Below, in pieces: positions 1,218-11,315 of a DNA stretch of 64,000 nucleotides. The position numbers were made by a program, and so were the translations under genes. Source of the stretch: Ostreococcus lucimarinus (taxonomy: Eukaryota). The stretch lies in NCBI GenBank assembly GCA_000092065.1, contig CP000594.1. One strand, 5' to 3'. The notes under the pieces were generated by a model that was given only the letters and a program-made list of their open reading frames with translations, was not told the origin of the DNA and did not search any database. Each line of letters begins with the position of its first letter. The first letter of the stretch is position 1.

Positions 1218-2396
1218 TCATCGGTTTGGAACTTGGGAGAAACCACCTAGAAAGTTGAGCGCCAAATTCTTCGCCGAGTCCGCCGTCAGGGATTGTATTT
1301 CACGATCCAAGTGCGCGCGATGCGTCGCCCGCGGACTGGCGTAGGCGTAACTCGCGTGTCGAAGCGTGACCTCGACCCCTCGCGTCAACGACTCGTACGC
1401 CTCGCCGAGATCGGAATCTTTGAACCTTTCTAACTCATCCATATCACCGTCGATGATGTGCCAATGCTCGCCCGGACGCGCGGTGGTGGCGATGAGATTC
1501 GCCGCGGCGAGCGAGCGCGAGGCAAAGTTTTCGGTCGGGATCACGCAGACCCCGTAACCGTCGACGTCTTCGGCGACTTCGAAACCGTTTTCTCTAAATA
1601 TTTCGCGGCACCTCTCCACCGCGCGTCCGCGCGAATTCAAGACGAACACCTTGCTCCCGCGCGCCAGCGCGGCGTGCAAGAGCGGTTTCAGGTCCTCGTA
1701 CACGACCTGCTCGCCCGCGCTCGTCCCCGGCTCGCCGTCCGCCGTCGTCTCCATCCGACGCGCGTCCACCGACGCTTGCAAACCCGCCGGCATCATCCGT
1801 CGCCCGTCCCACCCGACGCTCGACTCCACCTCCTCCCCCCACTTCAACACGCTCATCAACTTTATCTCCGGCCAGCTCGACACGATCTCGTCCACCGTCA
1901 ACGGCCTCGTTCTTCGCTCGAACCGCTGCTCGTTTGAAAACACCGGCCCCGGCCGCCCGCCGCTCGTCGTCCGCCCGCCGATGATCGCCTCGTCCGCGAT
2001 CACCCGCACCATCACCACCGCCTCGCACGACGTCGACTCCGCGATCGCTCGTCGCATCGTTCGCATCGCCTCGACGTACGACGACGCGTCTCCCGGGACG
2101 TGCTCCGGCCAGCGCTCGCGCGCCACCGCGTGGCTCACCCTCGTCATCTCCACCGTCGCGTCCACGACGGCGTCGTACGCGAACAGCACGACGTCGCGCG
2201 ACCGCTCGATGGCGTCGTCGTCGCTCGCGTCGCTCGCGTCCGCCGCGCGTCGCGCGACGCGTCGGCGTCGCGCCGACGCCGACGCCGATGTCCCGCTCGA
2301 TCGCGTCGCGCGGTCGCGCGCGCCTCGCGCGGTCGCGGTCGCGCGCGCGCGCGGCTCCGGACGCGCGCGCGACGCGTCGATCGCCCGCGCGTCCAT
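1218..2396 (-). CDS. Hypothetical protein. The C-terminal half is proteinaceous and Rossmann/DUSP-like; a Rit1-type tRNA-modification protein is only a guess.
   Basis: The C-terminal ~250 aa of the 720-aa minus ORF has balanced composition (VFVLNSRGRAVERCREIFRENGFEVAEDVDGYGVCVIPTEN...HWHIIDGDMDELERFKDSDLGE). The N-terminal part of the long ORF is Arg-rich and antisense to the JmjC gene, so I placed the start at the in-frame ATG at 2396. Confidence 0.4.
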   Translation of the reverse strand: MDARAIDASRARPEPRARATATARGARDRATRSSGTSASASARRRRVARRAADASDASDDDAIERSRDVVLFAYDAVVDATVEMTRVSHAVARERWPEHVPGDASSYVEAMRTMRRAIAESTSCEAVVMVRVIADEAIIGGRTTSGGRPGPVFSNEQRFERRTRPLTVDEIVSSWPEIKLMSVLKWGEEVESSVGWDGRRMMPAGLQASVDARRMETTADGEPGTSAGEQVVYEDLKPLLHAALARGSKVFVLNSRGRAVERCREIFRENGFEVAEDVDGYGVCVIPTENFASRSLAAANLIATTARPGEHWHIIDGDMDELERFKDSDLGEAYESLTRGVEVTLRHASYAYASPRATHRAHLDREIQSLTADSAKNLALNFLGGFSQVPNR

Positions 2397-2456
2397 GGCG
2401 CGCGCGCGTGTCGCGCCGCGCGCCGCGACGACGCTCGGAGGGACGCGGGACGCGCG

Positions 2457-3935
2457 ATGCGACGAAAAGATATTTTGTTTCGCGCCGGACGCCGCGAGCG
2501 TTTTAATCGCGCGACACACTCGTCGTCGCGCGGCCGATTCGGGACGCGCGCGACGCCGCGGGGCGCGACGTTGCGCGGAAAAACATATCGAAGATCGATC
2601 TCGCACGGCGGCATACGCGCGTACGGCGCGCGAGGCGTCGCGAGACGGGACGACGATGGGGAATCGCGCGAGGCGAGCGTTTCTGAAGACGAGACGACGC
2701 GCGGGACGGGGGGGTGGACGCCGCGCGCGCGCGAGGATTTCGGGACGTCGGGAGGGGCGTTTCCGGAGATTAACGTCGTGCAGTTCGTGGACGCGGAAGA
2801 CGGGGCGCCGGTGAGTTGTTTTGGGATGGATTACGAGACGCTGCGGCGGCGCGCGGCGGAGGCGGCGTTCGACGAGACGTCGACGACGCCCGAGTATCGT
2901 GGGTTTTTGAATCACGCGAGACGGTGCGTCGATGGGAGCGGAAAGATCGACTGGGGTTCGGTGACGCGCGTGGGGGGGCTGGCTGGGTCGAGAGAGGTGC
3001 GGCGGGCGCGCGGGGTGGACCCTCGGGACGTCGAGGCGGCGTGTTTGCGAGGCGAAGGCGAACCTTTGATCGTCGAGGACGGAGGGAAAGATTGGGCCAA
3101 GTGGGATTTTGAAACGCTTCAAAACGAAATCGGTGATTTTGAGGTGTTGTGTAACGATCGAGCGCCCGCGCGGCGACGAGAGATCGATGGATCCAAGCAG
3201 CGGTCGCACCTGATTCCGTTTCGGGCGTACGCCGACTACGTACGAAAGCGCGACGGCGTCGCCGGCACAGTCTTTGACGATCGCCGCACGCCGTTTTATG
3301 CAAACGGCATGCGCGTATTCAGCGAGTGCAAGCGCGCCGACGCCCTCTCGCGGGCGTTTCCACGACCTTATTTCACGCACGAGTGCGATAATACGGAGAC
3401 GCTGCTCATGGCGACAACGAACGAGCTCGGGTCGATACTCAAATTTGACTCGGAAATCGCGCTCAGAATGCGTGACAGCGTCTCAAAATCGCTCGACAAG
3501 ATGTTTGTCGGGCCTCGAGGCGCACTCACGCGCCTTCATTACGACGCCGGGGACGCTCACGGTTGGCTGGGACAGGTCGAGGGGCGGAAGCTCTTCGTGT
3601 TTTATCCGCCCAGCGCGTCGCCGATGCTTTATCCGATTGAAGACTCGCACGCCAGCGTCGATCCACTGGAGCCAGACTACGATCGATTTCCACTATTTCG
3701 CGAAGCGCAATCGCGCGCGCGAGTGTGCGTGCTGAATCCGGGAGAAGTCGTACTGTGTCCTCGACGATGGTGGCACTACGCCGTGGCCCTGGACACTAGC
3801 GTCACGGTTATGAGGAATTGGTACAACGTCAATACCAACGCCCAGGCGTTGGTCGAGCAGATATGCTCCACGATTAAACAAACAGTAGACAATAGAGCGA
3901 AAGGATCCGTGCCTCGAAACGAAGCGTCTCGATGA
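2457..3935 (+). CDS. JmjC-domain (cupin-like) protein, putative 2-oxoglutarate/Fe(II)-dependent hydroxylase
   Basis: Cupin/JmjC signature region: LTRLHYDAGDAHGWLGQVEGRKLFVFYPP...DPLEPDYDRFPLF...LNPGEVVLCPRRWWHYAVALDTSVTVMRNWYN. The first in-frame ATG clear of the opposite-strand gene is at 2457. Confidence 0.7.
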   Translation: MRRKDILFRAGRRERFNRATHSSSRGRFGTRATPRGATLRGKTYRRSISHGGIRAYGARGVARRDDDGESREASVSEDETTRGTGGWTPRAREDFGTSGGAFPEINVVQFVDAEDGAPVSCFGMDYETLRRRAAEAAFDETSTTPEYRGFLNHARRCVDGSGKIDWGSVTRVGGLAGSREVRRARGVDPRDVEAACLRGEGEPLIVEDGGKDWAKWDFETLQNEIGDFEVLCNDRAPARRREIDGSKQRSHLIPFRAYADYVRKRDGVAGTVFDDRRTPFYANGMRVFSECKRADALSRAFPRPYFTHECDNTETLLMATTNELGSILKFDSEIALRMRDSVSKSLDKMFVGPRGALTRLHYDAGDAHGWLGQVEGRKLFVFYPPSASPMLYPIEDSHASVDPLEPDYDRFPLFREAQSRARVCVLNPGEVVLCPRRWWHYAVALDTSVTVMRNWYNVNTNAQALVEQICSTIKQTVDNRAKGSVPRNEASR

Positions 3936-4168: not shown

Positions 4169-4909
4169 CTACGCCGAGAACAACTCCTCCAAAGTCATGT
4201 CCCGCATCTTGGCCACTTCCTTGAACGTTCGCATCTCGTTCAACCCCGCAACGACCGCCCGCGCATTATTCAACGGGTTCGAGCTTCCGAGCTGTTTCGC
4301 GAAGCAATTCTTATAGCCCGCCAGCTCCAAAACCGTGCGGCACGCGCCCCCCGCGATGACCCCCGTCCCCGGGCTCGCCGGGCGCAGCATCACCACCGCG
4401 CCGCCCTTCCCCTTCACCGTCACTCGATGCGGGAACGTGTCCCCTTTAGTTATCGGCGCTCGCTTCGCGCTCTTTCGCGCATCGCTCGCCGCCTTCGTCA
4501 CCGCGATTTGCACCTCCTTCGCCTTCTGGCACCCGACGCCAACCAAACCCTTGCCGTCGCCCACGACCACGGTGGCGCGGAAGCTCATCTGCGACCCGCC
4601 CTTGGTGATTTTCGTGACGCGCGACACCTGGACGACGGACTCTTGCATCCCGTCGTCCTCCTTGCCGCCGCGACCGCGGCCTCGGCCGCCGCGACCACCG
4701 CGTCCGCCGCCGCGCCCGCCGCGCGCGCGCGGGGTCTCGGACTCGCCTTCGACTGCCGACGCGTCTGCGTCGTCGCCGGCGCGCGCGACCGTCGCCGTGC
4801 GCCGCGGGGCGACGGCGACAATTTTATCGCATCGGTTCGCGCGGCTCGGGAGGCGCGCGGACGCCGCGCGAGACGCGGGCGCGGCGGTGAGGGCGATGGA
4901 GGCCATCAT
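4169..4909 (-). CDS. Organelle-targeted (probably plastid) bacterial-type ribosomal protein S5 (uS5)
   Basis: C-terminal 160 aa align with bacterial S5 (VTKITKGG...[27 protein letters not shown]...[22 protein letters not shown]...K.LGS.NP.N...A...L). It is preceded by a transit-peptide-like N-terminus and an RGG-rich spacer. Confidence 0.85.
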
Positions 4910-5229: not shown

Positions 5230-6537
5230 TTAATCGCGACCGGAATCGCGCGCGGCGTTCCGGATTTCGGTGCTACTGACGTCGACGCGAAAAGACGGGA
5301 GGGCGGCGAAGAGGTCGGCGGCGCGGCGCGCGGCGGCGGCGGCGAGGACGTCGGCGGCGGGGACGAAGGCGCGAGAGACGCGGTCGACGCGGCCGGCGAC
5401 GAGGAAATCGCACGCGTTGGCTCGGATTTCGTTGAGGGATTCGTCGAGGGCGGCGTCGGAGCCGGCGTATTTGGGGTCGAGGAGACGCGCGGCGGTGTCG
5501 GCGCCGACGACGAAGGCGGCGCCGGGGGCGGCGCGGGTCTTGTCCACGAAGAGTGGGGTTTTGGTGAGTAAACACACCGTGCCGGGGGTGGAGAACTGCT
5601 CGAGTCGACGCATGATCTCGTCTATGGAGAGCGTCCCCTTGTCGGCGTTCGTGACGCCGATTTCGTACGCGCCGAGCGCGCCCGGGGGCTTTGTCGCCGT
5701 CGCCGCGGCGAGCAAGTCGCGGTGGCCGTCGTGCAAAGGGTTGAACGACCCACTCAACACGACGTTCGCACGCGTGGCGCCCACTGCGGTGAGCACGCCC
5801 CCCGTGAATTCCAAAATCATCGGCGCCGCGGTGGTGGCACCGCTCGTCGACGAGTCGTCCTCCGCCAACCACCGCTCGACGACGGCGCGAGCGTCGCTCG
5901 CGTTTGCGTACGCCGAATCCTCCATCGTCGTCACCGAAACCTCGTCGAACTCGCGTTCGCTCAGAACTTCTCGCACTAAATCTACACCCGCGTCCGCGTC
6001 CGCGTCATCGACGCTCCGCCTCGCTTCCTCGTACAGCGCTCGCAACACCAACCGCGACGCGCAGCCCTCCTCGTCGAACCGCGAGCGCCCGCTCGTCTTC
6101 TCCAATCGCATCTCGTACGTCGTCATCCGCCCCAGCGTCTTCGCCGCCACGAAACATCTGTGGTCGCCTCGTTTGACGACGTCCTCCGTCGTCAGCGCGC
6201 ACGTCGCGCCGAGGCCCGTCGTCGCTCGCGCGTCGCTCGCCGACGCCGTCGCTCGCGAGCTTCCGTGTCGCACCGCCCTCGCGTACGCCGCGCTCGCCAG
6301 CGCCTCCGCGACTTCCCGCGAGCAGTACGATTCCACGTCATCGTCCGTCGCCCTCCCGAGCGTCTCGAGCGCGCTCTCGCGCGCGTACGGCACGCGCGCG
6401 TCCAATAAAGTGTTCGAGCACCTCGGGACGCTCGTCAGCCACCCGAGCGCGCGCGCCCCGCCGCCCGTGACGTGCAGCACCGCCCTGACCTTGCTCGCGT
6501 GGATCGTCTCCACGATGGCGCGGATTCCGGGCTCCAT
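5230..6537 (-). CDS. Fusion protein with an N-terminal CinA-C/PncC-like (NMN deamidase-like) domain and a C-terminal NadD/NMNAT-like nucleotidyltransferase domain
   Basis: The N-terminal half resembles the CinA C-terminal domain (LHVTGGGARALGWLTSVPRCSNTLLDARVPYARESALETLG...ATTGLGATCALTTEDVVKRGDHRCFVAAKTLG). The C-terminal half has the HxGH nucleotidyltransferase motif (SGSFNPLHDGH) and an ISSTEIR-type terminal motif (VSSTEIRNA). Confidence 0.6.
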   Translation of the reverse strand: MEPGIRAIVETIHASKVRAVLHVTGGGARALGWLTSVPRCSNTLLDARVPYARESALETLGRATDDDVESYCSREVAEALASAAYARAVRHGSSRATASASDARATTGLGATCALTTEDVVKRGDHRCFVAAKTLGRMTTYEMRLEKTSGRSRFDEEGCASRLVLRALYEEARRSVDDADADAGVDLVREVLSEREFDEVSVTTMEDSAYANASDARAVVERWLAEDDSSTSGATTAAPMILEFTGGVLTAVGATRANVVLSGSFNPLHDGHRDLLAAATATKPPGALGAYEIGVTNADKGTLSIDEIMRRLEQFSTPGTVCLLTKTPLFVDKTRAAPGAAFVVGADTAARLLDPKYAGSDAALDESLNEIRANACDFLVAGRVDRVSRAFVPAADVLAAAAARRAADLFAALPSFRVDVSSTEIRNAARDSGRD

Positions 6538-7079
6538 CGGCGCGCGCGCGACGCGGCGTCGCGCGGTGAAGTGCGACAGCGCGTCCCGGTCGTTCGTTCA
6601 AACGTTCGCGTCACACGTCGACGCGACGACGCGCTCGATCGCGCGCGCGCTCGCGAGCTCGAACGCAGGCGCGCATCGCGCGGTCGTCGACGCATGCGCG
6701 CGAGGCGAACGGGCGCGGCGGCGGCGAACGAGGACGACGCGCGATTGGCCAAGTATCTCGTCGTGAACGCGGAAAACGTCGCGCACAACGCGCGAGTGAG
6801 CGCGCGAGTGTTCACGTACCTGAGCATCGTGTCCGGAATCGCGATCGGCGCGCTCGGATACACCGGAGTGCGAGGGTTCGCGGCGCACGGGGTGTTTATG
6901 CTGGCGAGCGCGTGCGCGGTGGCGGCGAGCAAGTGCGAGGGACGACCGACGAGTTTCTTTCCGTCCGTCGATAAGGTGTTCCTGGACGGACCGAACGCTG
7001 GATTGCCGACGTTTGTGTTGTTTTGGACGCTGTCGTATAATTGCTGGCACTTGTTTTAGACGGTCGGAGGAGAGGGATC

Positions 7080-9209
7080 ATGAACACGGCGGCGCTGGTG
7101 AAGCGACAGCGGCGACCGGTGACGTATTCGCTTCCGCAGCCCGAGTACGCGAACAAGCACGTCGGTGGGGTGAACGCGGTGGACTTGGGAGGAGAGGGAT
7201 CCGATAGCATATTCACCGGTGGGCGCGATGGGACGGTTCGGATGTGGGATCTGTCGGCGGGGATGCCAGCGTGCGCGCGGCGGTTTGAAGGTCACGGCGG
7301 GTGGGTGAACGACGTCGCGAGAGTGTCGAGCACACATTTGGCGAGCGCTTCTAGCGATCACACCGTGCGGCTGTGGGATATAAGTGAAGGATCGATGTCG
7401 TCGTCTTGCGCGGTGGCTTTGCAGGGACACACAGATTACGTCATGGCGTTGGCGTGCGCGTCGGAACGCTTGGAAGGAAAGTTTGCTTCGGGCGGGCTCA
7501 ATCGCGAGATTTTCTTGTGGGACATCGAGCGATGTCTCGCGATCAATGCCGCGCCGTCGTATCTAAGCGTGAAGAATGATGGATGCGTCACCGCGCTGGG
7601 GGGCTCGAAGGAGTCCATCTACGCTTTGGGTATGGATGGGACTGGAAACTTGCTCGTCTCCGGCGGTACCGAGCTCGCGCTTCGCGTGTGGGACACGCGG
7701 AGCGCTCAAAAGGAAGGCAAACTCAAGGGACACACAGACAATGTTCGAGCAATCGTCGTCGACACGGATGGTAAAAAGTGCGTCACAGCGTCGAGCGATA
7801 GAACGATTCGTGTTTGGGACATTGGCGAGCAGCGATGCGTGCAGACGTTTGCGGGCATGCACACCGGGTCAATTTGGGCGCTCGCGTGCAACCGCGATTT
7901 CACTCGTGTATACTCGGGAGGTATCGATGCCCGGATATGCGTCACGTCGTTGCGTGATAGGAAAAGTAGTTTAGTCGCGAACGAATCGGCGGCTATTTTA
8001 AAGCTGCGCCTAGACGAGTCAACGCGCGCGAGCGGTTTCGCCGCGCACTCGTCGGACGGCGACTTGTGGACCGCCACTGCGTCGCGGTCGATCAAGCGCT
8101 GGCCGACGATCATCCCGGGCGAAGATGGCTCATCAGCGAACGTAGAAGACTCTCATGGAACGCCGACGAGCACCTCGTTCTCGCGTCGCGCCGCTGGATC
8201 GAGTCTTTTGCGGCAGCCGGGAACGTGGTTCGACGTCGGTTCGCCCGGGGCATTTTCGTTCGGCGGCACGACGCCGCGAAAGTTCGATAACTGGGGCGAT
8301 CCGCACGATCGTGAGCCCCAGGACTTAGTGCCGTCGATGGAGATTATCGGTGTGAGCCCGATCGTTCGTCACAGCGTGCTGAAGAACAAGATGGAGGTGT
8401 TGACGCAAGACTCCATGGGTGCCATCGCGCTGTGGGACGTGTCGCGATCGACCCCAATACGCACGTTCGACGGCGTCACCGATGGATCAGACTTCGAAAT
8501 TTTACTCGAAAATGAAAGTTTGAATCCAGATGTCGTCGTTCCATCGTGGTTTACCTGCAACACTCGTAGTGGTTCGCTCGCCATCACGCTCTCGCCAAGT
8601 TCGGCGTTCAACGCCGAGGCGTACGCGAGCGATCTGGGTATCGCTGACGCCGCGCCGGACGAGCGAAGAAATTTAGGTGTCGAAATCATTCGACTATTGA
8701 TGGATGAGTGGGTAGAAAAATTTACGTCGTCGAAACCTCCGCGATCAACGAAACGGGCGTTCGCCGAGCCGCTCCCGAGCGAGTGTGCGGTTTCGTTCGC
8801 GCACCCCATCGACGACAGCGGTCGCGTGTGCGTCAAGATTCGCGAAGACTTCTCGGGCACACCCACCGAGCGTGAGTTGCTTCCCAAATGGTTCGCCGAT
8901 CACGCCCTGAATCAAGCGCCCGAGCCGGAATCTCCAAAGATCAGTTTCCGCCTCGCCCCTCGCGCAGGCTCGGGTCTCGCTGAAATTTCCCCCGCGAGCG
9001 TCTCGGCGCCCAAGATTCTCGGCGCTCAGAAGATTCGCGAATACATCGCACAGAAGTTAGACGAAACAGATGGCGGAACGAGCACCGATGCCAGCGCGCT
9101 CGCGCTCTGGTGCGCCGGCCAACCCGTGCCGTCGTCGGCCACGCTCGCCGCCGCGCTCGCGCGCGTCTGGAAAAAATCGCCCCCGATCGAGCTCGAGTAC
9201 TCCAACTAG
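7080..9209 (+). CDS. WDR48: WD40-repeat protein, homologue of WDR48/UAF1 (deubiquitinase-activating factor)
   Basis: Strong collinear similarity to WDR48 across the WD repeats (GVNA..L...........FTGGRDG..R.W......HTDWVND...........ASSD.TV..W... GHTDYV.ALA...........GGLNR.IFLWD). The real ATG is at 7080 (MNTAALVKRQRRPVTYS). Confidence 0.85.
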   Translation: MNTAALVKRQRRPVTYSLPQPEYANKHVGGVNAVDLGGEGSDSIFTGGRDGTVRMWDLSAGMPACARRFEGHGGWVNDVARVSSTHLASASSDHTVRLWDISEGSMSSSCAVALQGHTDYVMALACASERLEGKFASGGLNREIFLWDIERCLAINAAPSYLSVKNDGCVTALGGSKESIYALGMDGTGNLLVSGGTELALRVWDTRSAQKEGKLKGHTDNVRAIVVDTDGKKCVTASSDRTIRVWDIGEQRCVQTFAGMHTGSIWALACNRDFTRVYSGGIDARICVTSLRDRKSSLVANESAAILKLRLDESTRASGFAAHSSDGDLWTATASRSIKRWPTIIPGEDGSSANVEDSHGTPTSTSFSRRAAGSSLLRQPGTWFDVGSPGAFSFGGTTPRKFDNWGDPHDREPQDLVPSMEIIGVSPIVRHSVLKNKMEVLTQDSMGAIALWDVSRSTPIRTFDGVTDGSDFEILLENESLNPDVVVPSWFTCNTRSGSLAITLSPSSAFNAEAYASDLGIADAAPDERRNLGVEIIRLLMDEWVEKFTSSKPPRSTKRAFAEPLPSECAVSFAHPIDDSGRVCVKIREDFSGTPTERELLPKWFADHALNQAPEPESPKISFRLAPRAGSGLAEISPASVSAPKILGAQKIREYIAQKLDETDGGTSTDASALALWCAGQPVPSSATLAAALARVWKKSPPIELEYSN

Positions 9210-10151: not shown

Positions 10152-11315
10152 ATGGGATTTCTTTTCACTTCCGAATCCGTGAACGAGGGTCACCCGGATA
10201 AGCTCGCGGATCAAATCTCCGACGGCATCTTGGATGCGTGCCTCGCGCAAGATCCGGATTCCAAGGTTGCGTGCGAGACCGCGACGAAGACCAACATGGT
10301 GATGGTTTTCGGTGAAATCACGACCAAGGCCAAGGTTGACTACGAAGCCGTCGTGCGCCAAGTGTGCCGCGACGTCGGTTTCATCTCTGATGAAACCGGC
10401 TTGGACGGTAACAAGTGCCGCGTGCTCGTCGAGTTGCACGACCAATCCCCGGACATTGGTCAAGGTGTGCACGGTATGGGCACCAAGTCCGATGAAGACA
10501 TCGGTGCGGGTGACCAAGGTCACATGTTTGGCTACGCCACGGATGAAACTCCGGAACTCATGCCGTTGACGCACGTTTTGGCCACCAAGCTCGGTCACCG
10601 CCTCACCGTCGTCCGCAAGGATGGTACGTGCCCGTGGGTGCTCCCGGATGGTAAGACGCAAGTCACCATCGAGTACGAAAACGAAGGCGGCGCCATGGTG
10701 CCGAAGCGCGTGCACACCATCTTGATCTCCACCCAACACATCGAGGGCGTGACGAACGAGAAGATCGCCGAGGATCTCATGAACGAAGTCATCAAGAAGG
10801 TTGTCCCGGAAAAGTACTTGGACGCCGACACCATCTTCCACTTGAACCCGTCTGGACGTTTCGTCATCGGTGGCCCGCACGGTGACGCCGGTTTGACCGG
10901 TCGTAAGATTATCATCGACACCTACGGTGGCTGGGGCGCGCACGGCGGTGGCGCCTTCTCCGGTAAGGACCCGACCAAGGTCGACCGCTCTGGCGCGTAC
11001 ATCTCCCGCCAAGCGGCCAAGTCCGTCGTCGCCGCGGGTCTCGCGCGCCGATGCTTGTTCCAAATCTCCTACGCCATCGGCGTCGCCGAGCCGTTGTCCG
11101 TGCACGTCGACACCTACGGCACCGGTAAGATTCCGGATTCCGAAATCCTCGCCAAGGTCAAGGCCGCGTTCGATTTCCGTCCGGGCATGATGGGCAAGGC
11201 GCTCGACCTCAAGCGCGGCGGTAACAAGCGTTACCAAACCACCGCCGCCTACGGTCACTTCGGCCGCGATGAAGACCTCGACATCTTCACCTGGGAAAAG
11301 GTCGTCCCGCTCTAA
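10152..11315 (+). CDS. METK: S-adenosylmethionine synthetase (methionine adenosyltransferase)
   Basis: Full-length match with textbook MAT motifs ([60 protein letters not shown]). Intronless, 387 aa. Confidence 0.95.

Follow-up and report, generated by a model that had tools for sequence, protein, structure and literature searches.

Two kinds of proteins are the closest described relatives of the one studied here. The first are the PncC-type enzymes, whose catalytic domain is fused in CinA to a COG1058 pyrophosphatase domain. The A. tumefaciens CinA mutants S31A, K63A, Y58A and R145A were inactive and S31 and K63 were proposed as the catalytic dyad (PMC5384747), while the different mechanism proposed for T. 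thermophilus CinA likewise depended on the 'absolutely conserved' Lys-301 (PMC4246079), so that this lysine (K61 in E. coli, K63 in A. tumefaciens and K301 in T. thermophilus) is required in both proposed mechanisms (PMC5384747, PMC4246079). The second is Pof1 (YCL047C) of S. cerevisiae, reported as a 'less efficient NMNAT' (nicotinamide mononucleotide adenylyltransferase) that has, unlike Nma1/2, a 'single-substrate specificity towards NMN' (nicotinamide mononucleotide) (PMC13191266). Here we describe a gene localised at 5230..6537, on the minus strand, of a 64,000-nucleotide stretch (the window) of contig CP000594.1 of Ostreococcus lucimarinus (assembly GCA_000092065.1), whose product joins a domain of each kind.

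The family to which this protein belongs is an undescribed variant of these two known kinds, namely a Pof1-type NMNAT that carries a PncC-fold domain without the catalytic dyad. The explanation that we favour, with a probability of about 0.5, is that the protein acts as an NMN adenylyltransferase of the Pof1 type, whose PncC-like module binds a mononucleotide but does not deamidate it. An earlier reading made from the DNA letters alone (the sequence-only reading) had proposed a salvage enzyme with two activities: the N-terminal half would convert NMN to nicotinic acid mononucleotide (NaMN) and the C-terminal half would convert NaMN to nicotinic acid adenine dinucleotide (NaAD), with channelling between both sites.

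Domain architecture and the Pof1-type domain

The AlphaFold2 model of the protein, built from a 32-sequence family alignment, was confident (predicted local distance difference test, pLDDT, 85.8; predicted template modelling score, pTM, 0.80). The protein consists of an N-terminal domain (N-domain; residues 1-175, 6013..6537), an acidic and variable interdomain linker (residues 176-240, 5818..6012) that contains the only segment with a pLDDT below 50 (residues 229-235), and a C-terminal domain (C-domain; residues 241-435, 5233..5817); here and below, all coordinates within the gene refer to the minus strand. The top-ranked matches in Foldseek were 21 CinA-superfamily chains, the N-domain has the three-dimensional fold of CinA_C, and its profile reached A. 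tumefaciens CinA (2A9S) and T. thermophilus CinA with E values of 1e-3 to 4e-3. In the Pfam search the protein of 435 amino acids (aa) gave no match to PF02464 (CinA_C) at E≤10, and PF02464 matched 6 of the 32 relatives at E≤0.01, one of which (P0256) was above the gathering threshold (30.2 bits vs. 23.5). Sequence comparison through these relatives supports the homology of the N-domain to PF02464, although the Ostreococcus protein itself is not a member of that model. Pfam also gave a borderline match to CTP_transf_like over residues 261-427 (22.3 bits; cut-off, 21). The N-terminus is of the CinA_C/PncC fold, as the sequence-only reading had proposed, and the C-terminus belongs to the NMNAT/NadD structural class of nucleotidyltransferases with HxGH and SxxxxR motifs; of the two Pfam families that had been expected, CTP_transf_like was found in this protein and PF02464 in some of its relatives.

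The C-domain contains both the HxGH and the ISSTxxR-type ATP-binding motifs of NadD, which had been recognised within the intact open reading frame (ORF) and were confirmed. When equivalent positions were tabulated across 120 relatives, His269 and His272 of the first motif, SGSFNPLHDGH (residues 262-272, 5722..5754), were each present in 119 of them, and in the second motif, SSTEIR (SxxxxR; residues 421-426, 5260..5277), Ser421, Ser422, Thr423 and Arg426 were present in 118, 117, 116 and 119, respectively. Two further motifs lie between them. The NADK motif (residues 297-300, 5638..5649), whose Asp299 and Lys300 were found in all 120 relatives, is present in Pof1 (NNADK) and not in NadD, and GADTAARLLDPKY (residues 345-357, 5467..5505) has the family consensus GxDTAxRLxxPKYY and the Pof1 counterpart GFDTLxRIFDPKYY. 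The latter occupies the position of the NadD motif GxDxxxxLxxWY, whose Trp/Tyr have a ring-stacking role.

Matches of the C-domain profile to PDB sequences were mostly to the HxGH motif and did not separate phosphopantetheine adenylyltransferase (PPAT) from NMNAT, for which fold and profile-profile comparison were needed; in NCBIfam, the 435-aa protein gave only sub-threshold matches to PPAT and NadD models. S. cerevisiae Pof1 and fungal relatives were retrieved and aligned, and the comparison of this profile with the C-domain alignment using hhalign showed homology over the whole length of the C-domain (probability 99.6%, E 1.5e-24, 172 columns). The invariant columns of both alignments coincided, as did the motifs SFNPxHxxH, NADK, FxxK, GxDTxxR, KYY, a conserved Arg and SSxxIR. 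When the C-domain alignment was compared to one sequence at a time, the values were 97.7% and 2e-12 for Pof1 and 85.9% and 5e-6 for E. coli NadD, and the NadD equivalog cut-offs were missed (TIGR00482, 20.5 bits vs. 112.45; NF000843, 11.9 vs. 240). Because the profile scores and the shared motifs favour Pof1 over NadD, the C-domain is classified, on its sequence, as Pof1-type and not NadD-type. In the comparison with NadD and NMNAT1-3/Nma1 it again resembled Pof1 more closely than NadD, and NADK and DTxxR are not NadD features. The proposal of an NaMN/NMN adenylyltransferase in the C-terminal half was correct for the structural class and the nucleotide-binding motifs, but the domain is not a NadD equivalog.

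Differences from Pof1 were also found, since the identity is only about 27% and Glu292 and other invariant residues of the family are absent from Pof1. Furthermore, only the C-domain has a counterpart in Pof1 and the fungal relatives, which have a length of about 240-300 aa and a single domain, whereas the Ostreococcus protein adds a 175-aa PncC-like domain and a linker. According to the explanation that we favour, the C-domain would bind ATP via His269/His272 (HxGH) and Ser421-Arg426 (SxxxxR) and adenylylate the 5'-phosphate of a mononucleotide, and by analogy with yeast Pof1 we infer that NMN would most likely be converted directly to nicotinamide adenine dinucleotide (NAD+). If the preference of Pof1 for NMN and not NaMN were carried over, the NaMN made by a deamidase would therefore be a compound that the fused transferase is not expected to use.

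Residues kept and lost in the PncC-like domain

PncC blocks P-I to P-III correspond to HVTGGGARALGWLTSVPRCSNTLLDARVPYARESAL (residues 22-57, 6367..6474), to which roles were assigned according to the published work (PMC5384747, PMC4246079). For the residue register, hidden Markov model (HMM) alignments to 2A9S and 4CT8 agreed with an hhalign comparison of the N-domain profile to the single E. coli PncC sequence (51 columns, probability 9.8%), which served for residue mapping and not as a homology test. Outside residues 26-110 the equivalences come from a motif-guided hand alignment; a diverse CinA_C profile was unobtainable from the near-identical enterobacterial PncC sequences.

The general base of PncC (K63 in A. 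tumefaciens, K61 in E. coli) is replaced by Ala56 in Ostreococcus, and none of the 120 relatives had Lys at this position (Met in 65, Leu in 18, Val in 15, Thr in 9, Phe in 4, and Ala, Ser and Ile in 3 each). The nucleophile of the ESCTGG block (S31 in A. tumefaciens, S29 in E. coli) corresponds to Thr24, an equivalence that comes from an ungapped extension of the HMM alignment and from matching secondary structure and is slightly less sure than that of the lysine; the relatives had Ser (46), Ala (38), Thr (33) or Pro (1) here. Three more residues of block P-I, E30, C32 and T33, are Val23, Gly25 and Gly26, and in the relatives a hydrophobic residue, Gly and Gly, whereas T105, which contacts the ring and the intermediate, is Thr107 in Ostreococcus but mostly Val or Leu in the relatives. 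As a result, the PncC motifs ESCTGG and GIAGP read (V/L)(S/A/T)GG(A/G) and GVG(C/F)T in the family. The catalytic lysine is present in E. coli PncC and in the CinA proteins of A. tumefaciens (2A9S) and T. thermophilus (4CT8/4UOC) and absent from the family, in which the serine is not conserved either.

On the other hand, the residues that hold the 5'-phosphate were kept: Ser41 (S48 in A. tumefaciens, S46 in E. coli) in 117 of the 120 relatives and Tyr51 (Y58, Y56) in all of them. Gly108, at the position of the oxyanion residue G106, was kept in 119, as was Arg153, the probable counterpart of the phosphate-binding arginine (R145 in A. tumefaciens, R142 in E. coli, R377 in T. thermophilus), which was matched by motif (GDR vs. 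RDR) in the hand alignment outside the HMM-aligned core. Judged by its residues, the N-domain has kept the 5'-phosphate-holding side of the pocket, while the side for amide hydrolysis has been replaced.

Several residues nearly invariant in the family are absent from PncC: His13, Trp33, Thr43, Lys122, Gly124, His126, Arg127, Lys147, Arg151, Glu156 and Ser161. Four of them, Lys122, Gly124, His126 and Arg127, lie in the motif KRGDHR (residues 122-127, 6157..6174), and Lys147, Arg151 and Glu156 are family-specific invariants that surround Arg153 in a basic cluster, K147...R151-x-R153...E156 (6070..6099). Among the relatives, His126 was conserved in 115, Lys147 in 116, Glu156 in 119 and Lys122 in 111. 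A low-complexity insertion, AVRHGSSRATASASDARAT (residues 88-106, 6220..6276), modelled with lower confidence, is lineage-specific and absent from plant and bacterial relatives.

Since the catalytic lysine is lost, the N-domain is probably not deamidating, contrary to the role given to it by the sequence-only reading. That reading had itself named the loss of the PncC catalytic residues as evidence against a deamidase, and these residues are indeed not conserved. Because the phosphate clamp is kept but neither the catalytic lysine nor the ESCT block remains, the N-domain most likely binds without deamidating. We infer that a phosphorylated ligand would be held by Ser41, Tyr51 and Arg153, the PncC clamp, of which Gly108 is also kept, reinforced by Lys147 and Arg151. 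The domain might serve for capture or sequestration of NMN, for sensing of a product or effector, for regulation, or for another reaction, in which His126, Glu156 and the lysines would take part.

Spread of the family, bacterial gene neighbourhoods and possible functions

An exhaustive search with HMMER, in which the family profile was run against 1.84 billion cluster representatives, gave 2,736 matches at E≤1e-30; the best 150 were, with few exceptions, about 380 aa long and colinear with the two-domain architecture. The top match was the cluster of Arabidopsis At2g01220 (Q8GX51, 'uncharacterized' or 'Nucleotidylyl transferase superfamily protein'), and members were found in Mesostigma, mosses, chlorophytes, the red alga Porphyra, Paratrimastix (in a fused form) and very many Chloroflexota, of which 458 GTDB species were matched by one pattern scan. 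At2g01220 and its plant, algal and Chloroflexota orthologues have the same architecture and the same invariant residues, being colinear over 97-100% of the length with 35-40% identity; the Ostreococcus protein differs from them in the insertion at residues 88-106 and in a longer acidic linker. The two-domain architecture is ancient, common and under strong purifying selection, and the Ostreococcus gene is an ordinary ortholog in a widespread family and not a novel fusion of this genome. This protein occurs beside a canonical NMNAT/NadD in plants, in green and red algae and in many bacteria. In open-access full text, searched for At2g01220, PTHR31285 and NMN deamidase in Arabidopsis, we found no paper that names At2g01220 or describes the two-domain family. 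HcgF (UPF0254, 3WVA), of [Fe]-hydrogenase cofactor biosynthesis, was also compared; it has no detectable sequence relationship, occurs in a different context and is not fused to a nucleotidyltransferase.

Some members were longer and had extra N-terminal regions, which consisted of tetratricopeptide repeats (P0229), a Phi_1 phosphate-induced domain (P0193) or unannotated extensions in Paratrimastix (P0153) and Scenedesmus (P0143). Gene-model fusions may account for part of these cases, and the domain fusions of the longer relatives gave no functional hint. Another cluster at 90% identity (P0123, with a representative of 390 aa) also holds proteins of 192-223 aa named 'flavin reductase RutF' in IMG, which may come from gene calls that merged an adjacent flavin reductase with the family gene.

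The context of the family gene was analysed in the 68 Chloroflexota species genomes in which it was callable; ORFs of the loci were called by a crude longest-ORF script, and intergenic distances are approximate. In 26 of these genomes ubiD lay immediately downstream on the same strand, with a 4-nt overlap in 14 of the 26, usually followed by ubiA and ubiX. In a further pattern, a Flavin_Reduct gene (PF01613) lay immediately upstream on the same strand in 23 genomes, and nuo genes were found downstream in about 10 of these 23 loci, several of them with a nuoA-B-C-D-H-I-J operon. One or the other pattern occurred in 54 of the 68 genomes, and UbiX-type flavoprotein and PNPOx genes were found near the family gene in other lineages. 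However, neighbourhoods were variable in a broader metagenomic sample, in which UbiD/UbiA/UbiX appeared in only 3 loci, and no NAD-salvage genes recurred. Because the Chloroflexota pattern fails to generalise to that sample, the association with flavin and quinone genes is an unexplained lead and not mechanistic evidence, and as a lead it keeps a non-NAD substrate possible.

Other features of these loci were also observed. The 4-nt-overlap translational coupling to ubiD-ubiA-ubiX was frequent in Dehalococcoidia/SAR202 (L011-L089; e.g. L011:6001-9535, L001:8001-12157 and L090:5001-9157), and the Flavin_Reduct-type loci belonged to SAR202-type genomes (L036-L088; e.g. L072:5373-7128 and downstream to 13113, the example with the nuo operon). 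In a different bacterial lineage, a same-strand gene recurred immediately upstream in metagenomic loci (7 loci at -1 and 10 within three genes, grouped by BLAST without L092; e.g. L118:510-1523), and it was the most frequent neighbour in the metagenomic sample. This gene may correspond to the upstream gene of L092 (4036-4986), which gave Pfam OB-fold and HD matches (PF01336, weak, and PF01966).

Several points weigh against a Pof1-type NMNAT with a ligand-binding module. The near-invariant polar set of the N-domain itself (His13, Thr43, Lys122, His126, Arg127, Lys147, Arg151 and Glu156) looks, from its sequence pattern, more like an active or polyphosphate-binding site than a decayed pseudoenzyme, and the Chloroflexota neighbours are ubiD-ubiA-ubiX or a flavin reductase, not NAD genes. 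Even for Pof1, a 'less efficient' enzyme with non-canonical phenotypes (PMC13191266), NMN may not be the physiological substrate.

The family might instead act on a different, non-pyridine phosphorylated substrate, such as an intermediate of a flavin or quinone pathway, and Pof1 would then be an NMNAT by side activity. The odds are against this explanation, but it is a possible one. The repurposed pocket is more hydrophobic near the ring and more basic near the phosphate, the invariant His, Lys, Arg and Glu of the family suggest a functional site, and Pof1 is poorly active as an NMNAT and has phenotypes that await an explanation; to these can be added the ubiD and Flavin_Reduct neighbours in Chloroflexota and the UbiX-type flavoprotein and PNPOx genes in other lineages, with the limit on the neighbourhoods given above.

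The same invariant residues could alternatively make the N-domain an active hydrolase or transferase with a new constellation (e.g. His126, Glu156 and Lys147) that works on a pyridine nucleotide and is coupled to the NMNAT domain; it would then be a deamidase of another mechanism or would modify NMN/NAD in some other way. The near-invariance of His126, Lys147, Glu156 and Lys122 together with the kept phosphate clamp is consistent with this, but the positions close to the ring have become hydrophobic, and the explanation is rather unlikely. We know of no Lys-independent PncC that could serve as a precedent.

A more speculative proposal, which we also consider improbable, combines both ideas: the PncC fold would have been rebuilt into a site of new activity or for sensing (His126, Lys122, Lys147, Arg151 and Glu156) beside a Pof1-type transferase for a non-NMN substrate, e.g. 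a flavin nucleotide or a nucleotide of the prenyl-FMN (prenylated flavin mononucleotide)/quinone pathway, for which the ubiD-ubiA-ubiX coupling and the adjacent flavin reductase genes of Chloroflexota give a hint, and fungal Pof1 would be a truncated remnant of such a protein. If true, this could account for the weak NMNAT activity and the odd phenotypes of Pof1.

The two-step channel from NMN over NaMN to NaAD is very unlikely. Both folds are those of the proposed enzymes, the residues of PncC that bind the phosphate of NMN/NaMN are kept, and Thr24 could in principle serve as a nucleophile. IMG labels such as 'NMN deamidase PncC' and 'nicotinic acid mononucleotide adenylyltransferase' exist for some relatives, but they are automated. 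In contrast, the general-base Lys is missing in all 120 relatives, with hydrophobic residues at its position and at that of Thr105/Thr340 (PMC5384747, PMC4246079), the nucleophile is an alanine in 38 of the 120 and ESCT has become (V/L)(S/A/T)GG. Moreover, the closest characterised relative of the C-domain, Pof1, was reported to use NMN and not NaMN (PMC13191266), and the score for the NadD equivalog is far under the cut-off. The claim of channelling is consequently not sustained, and this corrects an attractive annotation before it spreads, automated deamidase labels being already on relatives.

With a Pof1-type NMNAT carrying a non-deamidating, mononucleotide-binding module as the preferred explanation, a 'predicted protein' acquires a testable hypothesis, namely a regulated or sequestered use of NMN in NAD homeostasis. 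It is also plausible that Pof1, the non-canonical role of which is under study, evolved from this family.

The gene and its surroundings in Ostreococcus

The ORF at 5230..6537 runs without interruption from ATG to the stop codon (5230..5232) and encodes 435 aa. Its G+C content at the three codon positions was 0.66/0.55/0.86 (GC1/GC2/GC3), and an in-frame stop was found 20 codons upstream of the ATG; because of these three features, it is a real and complete single-exon gene with no N-terminal presequence in that exon. Its protein has the same sequence as XP_001421407.1/XP_001421438.1, a 'predicted protein [Ostreococcus lucimarinus CCE9901]'. A chance frame or a pseudogene has practically no probability here and is refuted by conservation, for although long ORFs arise spuriously and in large number in DNA of high G+C content, the antisense one of 498 aa at 5270..6766 among them, the ORF described here has full-length homologues from bacteria to plants, a GC3 of 0.86 against a GC2 of 0.55, a confident fold and intact motif residues.

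That antisense ORF (5270..6766, plus strand) is a shadow frame of the gene, and many other long ORFs overlap on both strands of the window (e.g. 5273..5872, minus strand) as artefacts of the GC-rich DNA, so that ORF length by itself is no proof of a gene in this window. When the whole protein was compared to PDB sequences, the sole match was a HopZ1a-like Orf34 (5KLP), which was discarded as a spurious low-complexity match.

The neighbouring genes in the window fit a green-algal nuclear chromosome. They encode a Cupin_8/JmjC protein (2100..3935, plus strand), the ribosomal protein uS5 (4169..4909, minus strand), a WD40 protein with a C-terminal DUF3337 domain (7041..9209, plus strand) and an S-adenosylmethionine (SAM) synthetase (10152..11315). 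A Nudix hydrolase 22 kb away is also a real gene, with an N-terminal PF18290 domain and PF00293 (28706..29803, minus strand). On a eukaryotic nuclear chromosome the gene order carries no operon-type information, and for this reason the loose link that the sequence-only reading had drawn to the Nudix gene was rejected.

The uS5 protein has an 85-residue N-terminal extension with an RGG/GRG-rich tract; a member of its cluster is named plastid ribosomal protein S5 by NCBI, and the NCBI gene model in this cluster has a length of only 159 aa, which may mean that the N-terminus is cut short in the public annotation. The plastid-type uS5 model, the SAM synthetase and the 435-aa protein (XP_001421407.1, XP_001421438.1) have two NCBI accessions each, 31-35 apart, which points to a duplication in the O. 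lucimarinus assembly, either of the gene models or of a segment; no repeats of at least 150 bp were found inside the window.

A close relative from a 61.6-kb ENA contig (P0002, 87% identical) follows the window protein apart from a part of some 40 residues. These residues match the alternative-frame ORF at 5273..5872 (minus strand; window positions 5722..5872), with loss of SGSFNPLHDGH, and this pattern would imply two compensating frameshifts, caused by an error in the assembly or belonging to a pseudogene at strain level.

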